A stretch of DNA of 64,000 bases from NCBI GenBank assembly GCA_015232575.1, contig JADFZL010000003.1, forward strand, positions 64,001-128,000, in the 5' to 3' direction. The notes below the pieces were generated by a model. It ran no database searches, had not been told where the DNA came from, and saw nothing but the letters and a program-made list of their open reading frames with translations. Below are positions 7,771 to 62,692 of this stretch, piece by piece. The position numbers were made by a program, and so were the translations under genes. Every line of letters starts with the position of its first letter. Position 1 is the stretch's first letter. This DNA is from Candidatus Rifleibacteriota bacterium. GTDB lineage: Bacteria; Muiribacteriota; Ozemobacteria; Ozemobacterales; Ozemobacteraceae.

Positions 7771-7784
7771 TTATTGTTGTGCAA

Positions 7785-7842
7785 TCAAAAGCTCTGCCGG
7801 AGCAAAGAATAAATATGTTGCTCCGGCAGAGCTTTTGATTTG
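7785..7842. terminator. perfect 21-bp inverted repeat (TCAAAAGCTCTGCCGGAGCAA / TTGCTCCGGCAGAGCTTTTGA) with 12-nt loop, followed by TTTGG; rho-independent terminator or palindromic operator
   Basis: Read directly from sequence, 15 nt after the LysM gene stop. Confidence 0.7.
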
Positions 7843-31744: not shown

Positions 31745-32025
31745 TTAAAAAACATTGTCTGAATTTATGAATATCCTACATTATTCCCGCATATTTTTCA
31801 ATACATATAAGGCTCTGTTTTTCAATTGATAATATGTGTACAATTTCCCCAGAGCTTTTCTAAATACGCAAAATCTTAAATAAGGGGGCGTTAAAGAATA
31901 AACTGATCATTTCAGGATTTTATTTGAAAATAATCATTAACGTACCCTCAATTACAGAGAGAAGTAACGCTGATAGTTCGGTACCCTCGAAATAATCATG
32001 TTGTTTCTTAACGACTCCTAAGGGG

Positions 32026-32122
32026 GCAAATTTGCGTGTTAACTTTTGGGTGAGCTGTCAACTCGAACGAATGTGAGAGATTTCTGAAAGTGCGAGATTT
32101 CTCCCTTCGGTCGAAATGACAT
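32026..32122 (-). repeat. copy A of a ~100-bp structured intergenic repeat family (inverted orientation relative to copy C)
   Basis: Reverse complement aligns to 61116-61213 at about 80% identity, including 'ATGTCATTTCGAC' and 'CTCACATTCGTTCGAG(T/A)TGACAG' and 'AAAGTTAACA'. Confidence 0.7.
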
Positions 32123-32358
32123 ACATAAATGGCTCCTTTATTAAGATTTGTAGTATTAAGAGACAAAATAATTTTATATGCTGCTTCAAAACATCATCAT
32201 TTCAGGTTTTCAGCGGTGAGTATTACATGAAATTGAATGAATGAAAAAAGTATGTAATAAAACATTGAAAACAAACGTATTGGTAATTCAGTGTGCGGAA
32301 AAAGTGTCAAGTTTTCATGGCAATACTTCTGCGAAAAAAATCTGGAGGAAAGGTTCTT

Positions 32359-39315: not shown

Positions 39316-40563
39316 TTATCTCGGAGGTAGCGGAATTGTGCCTGCGCTGCGTGGGTTGATGTAACTTCCGTTTCTTTTGATGCCCATGTGAAGATGCGGA
39401 CCGGTAGTCCATTGACCAGTATTGTCTGATTTCGCGATTTCCTGACCCATATTAACTCTCTGACCTTCCCTTGCCGAAGTAGATTGAAGATGACAATATA
39501 CTGATTCCAGACCATTGTCGTATCTTACTTTAATGAATCTTCCACCTCCGCTTTCGTAGCCGACATCCGAAACAACACCGTCTCCAAGAGCGTTAAGTCT
39601 TGTACCTGAATTTATTGGAAGATCTATTCCGTAATGGTAGTCGTGTCCGAAAAGATCTCTAGGACCAAACTCTGATGATACTCTTGACGGCATTGGCGTA
39701 CAAGGAGCAGCTCCAAATCTTCCTCTGCCGGCAGTTACCGGGTTGGCATTGGAAGCTGGTGAAGAGTTGGGATTGCGAACCGGGCTTCTGGTGGCCGGAG
39801 TGTTCGGAGTGGTAACATAGTTCTTGTGAACATACGCAAATCCATCGTTAAATTTGATTTTATACCATTCGCCTTCTGTGGCGACAATTTCAACCTTTGC
39901 CCCGTTTTCAAGTTTTCCGCTGATTTCACCCCATGCAGTTTTTCGAACATTGAGATATGTGTTAACTTCAACCATACCTTGAATAATCTGAGCTGGTGCG
40001 GGATTATTATTGCCGGTTAAGTCTGAAGATGGATTTGTACTTGCGTTTTCCGGAAGATCAAGAATCCAGCCAGGGTATATCAGATTCGGATTATTGGACA
40101 AAGATGGATACTTACTCTTGTTGAGTTGTACAAGCTCGGGGTATCTGCTTCCAGAGCCAAGAACACTCTTGGCGATTTTCCAGAGGGTGTCCCCGGGTTG
40201 AACAGTGTATGTTCGACCTGAACTGACTGGACTTTGAATTGGATTAACCGGCGCCTGAATTGTCGATGAGGAAATACTAACAGGGGCCGAAGATGTTAAT
40301 GGAATAACAGCAGTTACTGGGGGAGATATCGGAGGCAGTGTTATGGTTATTGTTACTGAAGAATTGTTTACTGGATTTGTTTGGATTATGGTTGAAACGG
40401 AAGCATTTCCGACCTTTATTGAGACGCTTACATTGTTTTCAGATACTGGTGAAGTTCTGCAGAATGCTATTTGAGAAACAAAAAGAAATACAAAAAGTGA
40501 ATAAAAAGGTGATTTTTTCATTACCTGCCTCGCATTCTTAAGTAAGTTACAAAACTTTCTCAA
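39316..40563 (-). CDS. secreted M23-family metallopeptidase with P/S/T-rich linker, LysM and SH3b domains
   Basis: LysM 'YTVQPGDTLWKIAKSVLG'; SH3b-like 'YLNVRKTAWGEISGKL...WYKIKF'; M23 'HYGIDL' (HxxxD) and 'GPHLHMG' (HxH). Confidence 0.8.
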   Translation of the reverse strand: MRKFCNLLKNARQVMKKSPFYSLFVFLFVSQIAFCRTSPVSENNVSVSIKVGNASVSTIIQTNPVNNSSVTITITLPPISPPVTAVIPLTSSAPVSISSSTIQAPVNPIQSPVSSGRTYTVQPGDTLWKIAKSVLGSGSRYPELVQLNKSKYPSLSNNPNLIYPGWILDLPENASTNPSSDLTGNNNPAPAQIIQGMVEVNTYLNVRKTAWGEISGKLENGAKVEIVATEGEWYKIKFNDGFAYVHKNYVTTPNTPATRSPVRNPNSSPASNANPVTAGRGRFGAAPCTPMPSRVSSEFGPRDLFGHDYHYGIDLPINSGTRLNALGDGVVSDVGYESGGGRFIKVRYDNGLESVYCHLQSTSAREGQRVNMGQEIAKSDNTGQWTTGPHLHMGIKRNGSYINPRSAGTIPLPPR

Positions 40564-40593: not shown

Positions 40594-40624
40594 TGTCATT
40601 TCGACCTAAGGGAGAAATTTCGTG
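40594..40624 (+). repeat. partial or degenerate copy B of the structured intergenic repeat family (5' arm only)
   Basis: 'TGTCATTTCGACCTAAGGGAGAAATTTCGTG' matches the first ~30 nt of copies A and C. Confidence 0.5.
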
Positions 40625-41854: not shown

Positions 41855-42784
41855 TTATTTTCCTGGAAGTGGCAAACCAGATACACTTCTTGGATCAACA
41901 TTAGCACCATTTTTCTTCATGCCCATGTGCAAATGCGCGCCAGTTGTCCATTCGCCAGTGTTGTCAGAGGCTGCAATCTGTTCGCCCATTGAAACTCTTC
42001 TTGGCGGGGAAACAAGACTTCTCTGAAGATGACAGCAGAATTGTTCGTAACCATTGTCATATCTGATGCGAACAAAATTTCCGCCGCCTGATTCGAAACC
42101 TGAATCTATAACAGTCCCATCGCCAAGGGCATTCAACCTTGTTCCATTAGGTACCGGAAGATCAATTCCATTGTGAAAGCTGTGTCCGAAAAGAGCTCTT
42201 GGTCCAAATTCAGAGGATGTACTTGAAGGCATGGGTGTGCAGGGTGGGGCACCAAATCTTCCCGATGAATTTCCCGCTGGAGAAGCAGGTGTTTCTTCTG
42301 ATACTGTATCATATCCACCGGAAGAGTTTTTCCTTCGAACCGGAACTCTGCCTGCTGGTTTATCTGGTGTTTCTACGTAATTTTGATGAATTAATGCTAC
42401 TCCACCGTCATATTCTATCTGATACCAGTCATCGTACGTTCCGATAATATTCACAGTGTCGCTTTCCTGAAAAGAACCTATTATTTCGCCCCAGGCGCTT
42501 TTTCGAATGTTCAGTGATGTTGGGACTCTGACTTTTCCAGCTATTACCCGACCGCCGTCTCCCATGCCATTTCCACGAGATATTTGAGAAGAAGCTCCAG
42601 AGGGCTTGGCATCAGTTGAAACTCCAAGGTCATGAGAGTTTAGCGTGGAATCCATGTCCAGTTTTTCTTCAGAAAATGCGTGCAGCATAAAAACGCATCC
42701 GTAAACCATTAAAAATATTATCCAGACAAATATGCCTTTACTCATTTTCCCCTCCTGAATCATTATTGCCTTCAATTTTAACAT
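41855..42784 (-). CDS. secreted M23-family metallopeptidase with SH3b domain (paralogue of 39316-40563)
   Basis: C-terminal ~120 aa about 70% identical to the other M23 ('RFGAPPCTPMPSSTSSEFGPRALFGH...GIDLPVPNGTRLNALGDG...HLHMG'). Confidence 0.8.
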   Translation of the reverse strand: MLKLKAIMIQEGKMSKGIFVWIIFLMVYGCVFMLHAFSEEKLDMDSTLNSHDLGVSTDAKPSGASSQISRGNGMGDGGRVIAGKVRVPTSLNIRKSAWGEIIGSFQESDTVNIIGTYDDWYQIEYDGGVALIHQNYVETPDKPAGRVPVRRKNSSGGYDTVSEETPASPAGNSSGRFGAPPCTPMPSSTSSEFGPRALFGHSFHNGIDLPVPNGTRLNALGDGTVIDSGFESGGGNFVRIRYDNGYEQFCCHLQRSLVSPPRRVSMGEQIAASDNTGEWTTGAHLHMGMKKNGANVDPRSVSGLPLPGK

Positions 42785-52499: not shown

Positions 52500-52728
52500 A
52501 CCTAAATTTTTCATTAAATCTCAATTTTAAACAGCAAATTGAGATTTAATGAAAAATAGTGAAAGCTGCTTTTTCATAAACAGAAATAGGATATTTTCAG
52601 CAACAGACGTAATGAAAAAGTAGAAGCGGATTCCAGACATTTAAGATAAATGCGGCAAGATGCCGAGTATACTGATGTACCTCGAATTATTCAGAAGATA
52701 CTTGTTCGACAAAATGGAGAAAATTAAA

Positions 52729-61081: not shown

Positions 61082-61115
61082 TAAGACATTAGCATAATAA
61101 AGGGGTCATTAAACA

Positions 61116-61213
61116 ATGTCATTTCGACGAAAAGGAGAAATCCCGCAGTGATGAGACCCTCACATTCGTTCGAGATGACAGTCCAACATAAAGTTAACAT
61201 GACAATTTGTCTT
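61116..61213 (+). repeat. copy C of the ~100-bp structured intergenic repeat family
   Basis: Shares about 80% identity with the reverse complement of 32026-32122; internal arms GTCATTTCGACGAA / TTCGTTCGAGATGAC can pair (about 14 bp) around a ~35-nt loop. Confidence 0.7.
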
Positions 61214-61297
61214 CTTATCTAATTAGAAGCAAAGAAGTTCTTATAATAAAAACAGGGAACGAGTTTTAATCGTTCCCTGTTTTTATTATCAAAAGTG

Positions 61298-62692
61298 CTA
61301 CTTGATGCTTTTTCGGCCGGTTTTGCTTCTTTCTTTGGCTTTTTTCAGTCTGTCAAGTGCTGCCTTTACTGCTGGCGAATCAACCGAATTTTCACCCAGT
61401 GCTTTGTTGTATGCTTTGAATGCTTCGAAATATTCTTCTTCTGCTGAAATCATATCCTGTCCTGCTCCGGTTACAGGCGTATCTAAAAGAGGGCTCTGAT
61501 TATTTTTTGAATCATCAAGAGTCATAAACTTAGTTTCAGAAGGAGCAATTGTTGTTACGCCATCGCCATCAGCATAGTTGGCAGAAAGAGTGCTGTTCAT
61601 GCCTGTGGTACTTTCAGACGGCTGTGAACTTGGGGAAAGACCGGCAAAATCTTCGTCAAATGAGAAGATATTTTTGAAGACTCTTGAAAAGAAACTCTTA
61701 ATCGATGTCCAGAAAGAGCCTGAAAAAACGCTTCCGTTGCTTCCTGTGCCACCTGAATTAGCACGTGAATTTATGTAGTTGTACATGTCCTGATTAACAA
61801 CATTTGATCCGTTATTCACATAATTGAGCAGTTCAGATTGTGAAATCTTCCCTTTGCTGTTACTGTCAAGAATTTGTGCAAGTCTTACCTGGTCCTGGGG
61901 ATACATTGAAAGATAGCCTTTGCAGAAATCTTTCAGACTGTTATGAGGACCTGAGTAAGTTATTGAGTTAAATACTTTTGTCTTGCCATCGCCGCCATTC
62001 TGAAAAAGGTCATTTATTACCTTGGCATTGAACAACTCATTTCTGGACATTTCTTCAAAAGATTTTGCCTGAAGGAAATTCAGAACAGAATTATCATTTA
62101 TGTTAAGAGAGAATATCATTCCATTGTTTTTGTTGGCAGCAAAGGCATTAGCCCAACCTTCTACCCAGGCTGTCTTGTTATTGGGAAGTATTTCATCCAT
62201 GTAATGGGCATTATCAGAACCATAGTCAAGTCCGGAAAAATTATATGAACTCGGGTAAGCATTCAACATGGCAACATGGCCAAGTTCGTGAAGGAAAATG
62301 AATTTCTTACTTTCGGGAGTTGTGTATTGGGTAACGTGTTTGTACAAAGTTATATTATAACCACTTGTATTTTTTGAAGATGTGGAAATCGAGTTTTTAT
62401 CACTGATGGTTAAATTTAACGGCAGAGCCAGAGATGAAGATACATCCAGGGTGTAACCAAGAAGAGTTTTGTTGCCGACCGGTTGATTGAGATAATCTCT
62501 CCATGGACTTCCCACGGGGAGATCATTGACTGATGTAATCTGATATTTCTGCGATCCTATCTGATTTCCGTAATAGTCATAGATTGCTTTTTCATAGAAC
62601 AGGTTCAGAGGTGCAGAATGGGCAATTGTACAAACAGAAACCAGAACAAGCATCAAAACCCATATTTTATTCAATACAGCCACATTTTTCAT
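61298..62692 (-). CDS. secreted protein with an HEXXH zinc-metallopeptidase-like motif (hypothetical)
   Basis: Signal peptide; 'FIFLHELGHVAML' HEXXH; S/N-rich low-complexity C-terminal half. Confidence 0.5.
   Translation of the reverse strand: MKNVAVLNKIWVLMLVLVSVCTIAHSAPLNLFYEKAIYDYYGNQIGSQKYQITSVNDLPVGSPWRDYLNQPVGNKTLLGYTLDVSSSLALPLNLTISDKNSISTSSKNTSGYNITLYKHVTQYTTPESKKFIFLHELGHVAMLNAYPSSYNFSGLDYGSDNAHYMDEILPNNKTAWVEGWANAFAANKNNGMIFSLNINDNSVLNFLQAKSFEEMSRNELFNAKVINDLFQNGGDGKTKVFNSITYSGPHNSLKDFCKGYLSMYPQDQVRLAQILDSNSKGKISQSELLNYVNNGSNVVNQDMYNYINSRANSGGTGSNGSVFSGSFWTSIKSFFSRVFKNIFSFDEDFAGLSPSSQPSESTTGMNSTLSANYADGDGVTTIAPSETKFMTLDDSKNNQSPLLDTPVTGAGQDMISAEEEYFEAFKAYNKALGENSVDSPAVKAALDRLKKAKERSKTGRKSIK

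Follow-up and report, generated by a model that had tools for sequence, protein, structure and literature searches.

Three intergenic sites in the window, the 64,000-nt stretch of Riflebacteria DNA analysed here, carry related repeats, and we wanted to establish what these repeats are. The earlier note on this DNA had described two full copies of about 100 nt (copies A and B below) and a third, shorter one (site C), and had offered a MITE-like or REP-like mobile element or a small structured RNA family as possible readings. We consider it quite likely that the repeats are Ssn-related hairpin motifs, i.e. CGTC/TGTC-tagged REPs, present as two decayed inverted heterodimers and one solo unit. Read in this way, three otherwise puzzling intergenic repeats are explained. 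The link between Ssn GIY-YIG nucleases and such repeats is already published (Chenal et al. 2025, Nat Commun 16:2388, PMC11893778); what is new is a widespread subfamily of repeats that escapes the published search motif. The anatomy of the unit and its covariation, the distribution across phyla and the linkage between units and Ssn homologues in other genomes were obtained here. The ssDNA-specific, strand-specific cleavage and the effect on transformation are taken from the literature (PMC11893778).

Repeat units in the window

We scanned the window with the core pattern GTCATTTCGACSNAARGGAGAAAT and obtained three matches with no mismatches, at 32097-32120 on the minus strand and at 40595-40618 and 61118-61141 on the plus strand. 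The number expected by chance was 0.00 (100 dinucleotide-preserving shuffles), so the three repeat sites exist as first placed. Open reading frames and Pfam searches agreed that all three are intergenic. Copy A lies between a divergent radical-SAM/B12 gene and an S8 protease gene. Site C follows the 3' end of an unknown gene (348 aa) and precedes a LysM/SH3/M23 peptidase gene by about 30 nt. Copy B begins 14 nt past the stop codon of a GT2 gene and is followed by a terminator-like inverted repeat at 61233-61299. Within the repeats, the short ORFs start in different frames in copies A and B and, as had been stated earlier, are not conserved.

The identity of the two full copies, first given as about 80%, was found to extend even further, over approximately 125 nt at 80-81% (composite copies in Table 1). 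The alignment consists of two blocks, 59 nt at 80% and 53 nt at 81%. The third site had been described as partial, and it shares only 29 nt (93% identity) with the full copies. Rightward of site C, alignment to the right halves of copies A and B or to the canonical right unit was equalled by 41-44 of 500 shuffles. A decayed dimer at site C was rejected on this ground.

The covariance model R1, run on the window with filters off, identified five units in all; no other match fell below E = 0.8. They make up two inverted heterodimers and one solo unit (Table 1).

Table 1. Composite repeat copies and hairpin units of the window. Unit segments are separated by spaces.
Feature	Positions	Strand	Layout or segments	R1 score (bits)	E
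Composite copy A	32019-32143	-	about 125 nt: 22-nt left flank, inverted heterodimer with 13-nt spacer, 37-nt right flank
Composite copy B	61095-61217	+	about 123 nt: layout as copy A, 10-nt spacer between units
Unit A-left	32096-32121	-	TGTC ATTTC GA CC GAA GG GA GAAAT C	46.3	4e-9
Unit A-right	32056-32082	+	TGTC AACTC GA AC GAAT GT GA GAGAT T	19.9	0.013
Unit B-left	61117-61142	+	TGTC ATTTC GA CG AAA AG GA GAAAT C	33.6	5e-6
Unit B-right	61153-61180	-	TGTC ATCTC GA AC GAAT GT GA GGGTC TC	18.9	0.022
Solo unit C	40594-40619	+	TGTC ATTTC GA CC TAA GG GA GAAAT T	39.5	2e-7

All five units start with TGTC, and defects were observed in four of them. The exception is A-left, the sole fully canonical unit of the window, in which the tag, both helices, both GA dinucleotides and the trailing C are intact; the unit type most often seen in other phyla has the same sequence. 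A-right, of the ATCTC/GAGAT type, is degenerate: one of its outer pairs is broken, and it lacks the trailing C. In B-left one of the two inner pairs is broken, and this non-standard pair was marked in the covariance-model alignment. B-right has mutations in the 3' half of its outer helix. Solo unit C keeps an intact hairpin and has T instead of C after the palindrome. The trailing C is thus present in A-left, B-left and B-right, and T stands in its place in solo unit C and A-right.

The earlier note had proposed that each full copy folds into one long hairpin around a variable loop. The complementary arms are real, but the conserved structure consists of two separate 26-nt hairpin units and not of one hairpin of about 65 nt. 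The supposed variable loop contains the conserved 3' halves of both units, and this part of the proposal has to be abandoned. The fold energy of the long hairpin was ordinary (z = -2.4 and -2.2 as RNA; -0.7 to -1.8 as DNA).

Unit design and covariation across genomes

Further copies elsewhere had been named as the check that would separate a family from a chance local duplication. A one-genome-per-species scan with the left-arm 24-mer pattern gave at least 115 genome stretches, and a metagenome scan with the right-unit 19-mer gave at least 120. In these at least 120 metagenome stretches the canonical right unit TGTCATCTCGAACGAATGTGAGAGATC was often present as the heterodimer of the window, ATTTC+ATCTC. 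We compiled a comparative set of 1.6 Mb of repeat-bearing loci (235 loci), which holds 531 units of one design. The genome matches listed came from Flavobacterium, Mucilaginibacter, Ignavibacteriota, Desulfobacterota, Chloroflexota, Gammaproteobacteria, Binatia, Planctomycetota, Nitrospinota, Dadabacteria, another Riflebacteria MAG and one Bathyarchaeota MAG. Exact 20-24-mers of the window units occur in other phyla and in Riflebacteria, the lineage of the window itself. The canonical dimer gave no DNA match in plasmid or phage collections at the sensitivity used, and units were rare in viral contigs (8 stretches in 2.9 million contigs). The contig binned as Bathyarchaeota (L029) carries a canonical dimer whose units score 46.3 and 39.8 bits with R1; it represents either a transfer to archaea or a binning error.

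The 26-nt unit reads, in order, (T/C)GTC tag, 5-bp helix, GA, 2-bp helix, loop of 3-4 nt, 2-bp partner, GA, 5-bp partner and C. The outer helix was found as ATTTC/GAAAT, ATCTC/GAGAT, ATTCC/GGAAT, ATCCC/GGGAT and ATTGC/GCAAT, the inner one as CC/GG, CT/AG, GC/GC, AC/GT and GT/AC, and both GA dinucleotides are fixed. The reverse complement of the outer 5-mer followed about 11 nt further on at 205 of 232 ATTTC sites, 14 of 22 ATTCC sites, 10 of 14 ATCCC sites and 4 of 7 ATTGC sites. Behind other 5-mers in the same frame the complement almost never follows.

Covariation was assessed on 103 distinct units, picked without requiring pairing. We observed 86 changes on both sides of a pair, compared with 31.7 +/- 4.4 in shuffles, and none of 500 shuffles reached 86. 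The covariation score was 0.309 vs 0.149, and controls with a slid frame gave at most 0.16. Both helices covary. The search for further copies found them in number, with covariation present.

The tag, which is unpaired and gives the repeat its orientation, is conserved: GTC is preceded by T in 458 and by C in 43 of the 531 units (T or C in 501). The base after the palindrome is C in approximately 90% of units. The 3' tails were CTT in 193 units, CTC in 107, CAC in 37, CTA in 35 and CCA in 23.

Dimers were mostly arranged with the tags outward (127, vs 39 pairs with tags inward and 24 tandem pairs). Heterodimers, in which the outer arms mismatch and each unit is internally paired, account for 54 of the 127 tags-outward dimers. 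The commonest is the window combination ATTTC+ATCTC (n = 25). Since so many dimers have mismatched outer arms, selection acts on the 26-nt hairpin and not on the long one.

We also noticed that translations of the repeat (CHFDRREKS, VISTEGRNL, SFRPKGEI, SFRPKREI and similar) cluster as recurrent spurious ORFs (L123, L141, L221, L124, L157, L217). The units are a likely source of false 'hypothetical proteins' in annotation.

The neighbouring nuclease gene and the Ssn system

The initial lead to a partner gene came from two loci in which a unit is directly followed by a GIY-YIG reading frame. We collected the ORFs of the 1.6 Mb that are flanked by units on both sides within 150 nt. The sole cluster that recurred across loci was a GIY-YIG ORF of 97-131 aa, which measures about 95-105 aa from its likely start and matches PF01541 (E ~1e-15). 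With the requirement relaxed to a unit on a single side, just one other family, the very common response regulators, occurred in more than three loci. All six homologues detectable by tblastn in the 235 loci lie within about 80 nt of units, and one is overlapped by a unit. Five of them have units on both sides, and the sixth has a unit on the only side visible before the contig end. RAYT or another transposase as the partner was rejected, as clustering of the ORFs beside units in the 1.6 Mb gave GIY-YIG as the only specific family, in addition to the response regulators and spurious translations of the repeat.

We also performed the reverse test, in which homologues were taken from a protein database independently of the repeats (more than 7,900 matches at E <= 1e-10). 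Units detected with R1 flanked the gene in six of the six distinct genomic contexts examined. The typical layout was unit(+), gene, unit(-), within 20-110 nt, and tandem dimer arrays were present in two of the six. Arrays of this kind beside ssn were seen in Urechidicola croceus (L236:600-2850) and Abyssalbus ytuae (L241:1800-3400), where dimers are repeated with periods of about 147 nt and about 182 nt, respectively; they resemble BIME clusters.

The GIY-YIG protein from Planctomycetota was 43.5% identical to the product of a 94-aa gene of N. gonorrhoeae (E = 3e-10 in a search against 7.3 Gb), and this gene sits among nine exact NTS repeats (NZ_CP119140.1). Pairwise identities between the GIY-YIG proteins and Neisseria SsnA were 40-46%. 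Judged by their sequences, the GIY-YIG proteins beside units in other genomes are Ssn homologues. An AlphaFold model of the nuclease (pLDDT 91) was closest to the UPF0213 protein BH0048, then to Slx1, and then to the catalytic domains of UvrC and I-TevI. These relatives came from the fold search; a search of the nuclease sequence against the PDB gave no match. A homologue in Azospirillum lipoferum (plasmid AZO_p3) is flanked by CGTCATCCCCGCGAAGGCGGGGATCCAG dimers. The gene and its flanking dimers are inserted there between sufB and sufC, inside the suf operon. In the plasmid collection, 2.17-Mb chromosomes of N. gonorrhoeae are labelled as plasmids, and the ssnA locus NZ_CP119140.1 comes from this source.

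Members of the Ssn family are single-domain GIY-YIG proteins of about 94 aa (CDD cd10448). Their target is an oriented hairpin repeat, in Neisseria the NTS CGTCATTCCCGCGMAVGCGGGAATCYRG, which is an oriented form of dRS3, and elsewhere termed SRM (PMC11893778). SRM/NTS repeats are inverted repeats of 20-50 nt that can fold into a hairpin. Ssn binds only ssDNA, and only one strand of it, and cuts a few nucleotides upstream of the repeat; it is inactive on dsDNA, RNA and the reverse strand (PMC11893778). The most important base for binding is the C right after the palindrome, and the gene lies in an NTS-ssnA-NTS layout (PMC11893778). Loss of SsnA leads to approximately five-fold more transformation with NTS-bearing DNA, and SsnA of N. 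meningitidis lowers the integration of transforming DNA that bears the repeat (PMC11893778). An IS-like origin was put forward in the same paper as a hypothesis only.

The dRS3 repeat had been catalogued earlier as a CGTC-tagged REP, a group that includes TGTC variants, stems starting with AT, dimers and heterodimers (Di Nocera, De Gregorio & Rocco 2013, PMC3733652). Besides dRS3 of Neisseria, the group comprises RPE-4 and RPE-6 of Rickettsia, and Bacteroidetes are among its phyla; for the CGTC repeats neither a dedicated enzyme or transposase nor a linked RAYT was reported (PMC3733652). CGTC/TGTC-tagged REPs and NTS/SRM repeats are the same thing. Of the readings first proposed for the window, that of a REP-like element was right: the copies belong to the CGTC/TGTC-tagged REP superfamily (PMC3733652), which equals NTS/SRM (PMC11893778).

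The units described here resemble SRM/NTS in being oriented hairpins (about 26-28 nt) that are preceded directly by (C/T)GTC and, in most units, followed directly by C. Their copies are intergenic and often form inverted pairs. In other genomes, though not in the window, units stand on either side of a gene for a single-domain GIY-YIG protein of about 95-105 aa. They differ in the stem, which is ATTTC/GAAAT or ATCTC/GAGAT with tandem G.A, whereas that of NTS is a perfect ATTCCCGC/GCGGGAAT. Further, they are mostly TGTC-tagged, and their hosts are a candidate phylum and many environmental phyla. With the CGTC REPs they share the terminal CGTC/TGTC, a stem that begins with AT, the position between genes and a prevalence of dimers, many of them heterodimers. 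Read as 8 + 5 + 8 or 9 + 3 + 9 nt, they could correspond to the CGTC REP geometry (stem of 8-9 bp, loop of 4-5 nt, or 3-5 nt in a wider reading), but two stem positions are G.A mismatches. Unlike that of the CGTC REPs, the stem here is interrupted by G.A/A.G. The unpaired 3-nt tail of the CGTC REPs is mostly CCA, in contrast to CTT or CTC here.

The published SRM search sequence, HGTCWYN(0-2)YYVSBRHN(0-5)WNVSBRGN(0-2)RNCYNB, is an operational pattern derived from 29 genomes and not a biological definition. It matched nowhere in the window, and the NTS positive control was matched. It also matched none of 257 ATTTC units and one of 130 ATCTC units, though these flank Ssn homologues. The motif misses them because the tandem G.A puts A where the motif demands C or G. 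As the published motif fails, membership rests on the architecture and on the linkage to the nuclease. We regard the ATTTC/ATCTC tandem-G.A units, as their sequences indicate, as a subfamily of the Ssn system that is uncaptured by the published motif. Such subfamilies are to be expected, since 29% of ssn loci were scored as motif-free (PMC11893778).

In the 64-kb window, a search for an Ssn homologue gave only tblastn noise (E >= 0.26). No ssn gene lies in the window, and a cognate nuclease of this bacterium is therefore putative. By analogy with Neisseria, the window units would be, or would once have been, putative sites at which a cognate Ssn, itself encoded elsewhere in the genome, binds and cuts. 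If the published determinants apply, only A-left looks fully competent, and the other units look like eroding relics.

This reading extends the Ssn/SRM system to Riflebacteria, a candidate phylum, and to many phyla from the environment. The published motif misses a very common subfamily, and therefore surveys based on this motif would undercount pairs of Ssn and repeat. In the search for new enzymes, the subfamily directs attention to Ssn nucleases whose hairpin specificity is different.

Shared flanks, rival explanations and gene context

Copies A and B share about 22 nt and about 37 nt of non-palindromic flank beyond the dimer. These flank motifs and the exact right arm were absent from the 115 other genome loci examined, and the flanks in metagenome loci, read by eye, differ from those of A and B. 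We rejected the possibility that the flanks extend the hairpin, as they pair no better than shuffles (-6.0 vs -6.4 +/- 2.1 and -8.4 vs -7.7 +/- 2.6 kcal/mol). The two-sequence consensus fold of A and B adds 4 pairs only. In the comparative set, 24% of dimers lay within a longer inverted repeat, compared with 4% in shuffled controls (Wilcoxon p = 1e-6). Several lineages carry the same dimer within a longer inverted repeat of their own, e.g. cctcttgcaaaactc...gagttttgcaagagg (L126, L129, L136, L154, L155; also L117/L134, L024, L031). Such lineage-specific flanks could arise when the flank is copied together with the dimer or when dimers insert in particular targets. Binding of a nuclease alone does not explain the flanks shared by A and B.

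One explanation of the flanks, which we put forward tentatively, is that Ssn-type dimers are non-autonomous mobile elements, a GIY-YIG counterpart of REPINs, copied by Ssn together with adjacent sequence. The A/B composite of about 125 nt would then be a copying footprint, and so would the lineage-specific flanks and longer inverted repeats in other phyla. If this were true, ATTTC-GA/ATCTC-GA would be a very widespread recognition class missed by the published SRM motif. Mobility of the MITE-like kind proposed earlier is hypothetical: the check for target-site duplications and terminal inverted repeats revealed nothing convincing at A and B, only a trivial TA at both ends.

A lineage-specific MITE of about 125 nt, in which an ordinary transposase moved the whole composite and the Ssn-type dimer served as its core or as an insertion target, seems unlikely to us. 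MITEs such as the Correia elements of Neisseria are likewise short, non-coding, intergenic and repeated. The flanks common to A and B agree with such an element, as do the conserved lineage-specific flanks round the same dimer elsewhere and the excess of dimers within longer inverted repeats. However, MITEs have terminal inverted repeats that match a parent IS, and target-site duplications, and neither was found at A and B, where the flanks pair not above chance. Only two copies exist in the window, with 80% identity, and no transposase family recurs beside units in the 1.6 Mb.

The REPIN-RAYT systems (Bertels & Rainey 2011; Nunvar 2010) likewise combine a tagged hairpin repeat and inverted dimers with one nuclease gene that has its own repeats on either side. 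They differ in the GTAG tag and in the HUH Y1 fold of the enzyme, which is unrelated to GIY-YIG. A REPIN-type element mobilised by a RAYT (HUH Y1 transposase, IS200/IS605 type) shares the general look of the window copies, i.e. a tagged hairpin in inverted dimers between genes (PMC3733652). The tag here is TGTC and not GTAG, and the literature links no RAYT to CGTC repeats (PMC3733652). In the 1.6 Mb no Y1-transposase cluster was found beside units, and the specific recurrent neighbour was the GIY-YIG gene. We judge this origin to be very improbable. Mobility has been demonstrated for REPINs and not for SRMs.

A small structured or cis-regulatory RNA family acting at the transcript level is hardly more probable. 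In its favour, the hairpin covaries, copy A is 5' intergenic, and copy B is 3' UTR-like, ahead of a terminator-like hairpin. Against this, Rfam gave no match at the gathering score in the whole window and none at E <= 10 at site A (31950-32200). The units occur in both orientations, as inverted dimers and arrays, and their gene contexts are unrelated from phylum to phylum. At all three sites, scans for promoters and terminators gave no signal above chance, and the characterised Ssn acts on ssDNA and is inactive on RNA (PMC11893778). The small-RNA reading of the earlier note is therefore unsupported. The hairpins may have a secondary effect on mRNA stability.

That the window repeats resemble each other by chance, or stem from a single local duplication outside any family, can practically be dismissed. 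The window holds only two full copies in 64 kb, and their fold energies are ordinary. Chance is nevertheless refuted by the expectation of 0.00 matches in shuffles and by the hundreds of copies in other genomes and metagenomes.

If the repeats are Ssn-related motifs, as we prefer, the window would contain predicted oriented ssDNA nuclease sites next to genes whose products are secreted or belong to the cell envelope (S8 protease, LysM/M23 peptidase, GT2 glycosyltransferase). In Neisseria, NTS cluster near surface-protein genes; with three sites, the parallel is an anecdote.

Several minor observations were made in the same stretch of DNA. The closest relative of the GT2 protein outside its own MAG is 53% identical. 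The inverted repeat at 61233-61299, with 30-nt arms that are 87% complementary and a 7-nt gap, sits between the convergent GT2 gene and an unknown gene at 61298-62692. The repeat resembles a bidirectional terminator, though a simple scanner did not call it. Perfect inverted repeats with arms of 23 nt and 22 nt were found at 7783-7840 and 52506-52557, respectively. Two M23 peptidase genes with SH3 domains, at 39316-40563 and 41855-42784, lie on the same strand about 2.5 kb apart. They share 92 nt at 71% DNA identity (39368-39459 vs 41907-41998) and are probably paralogues.
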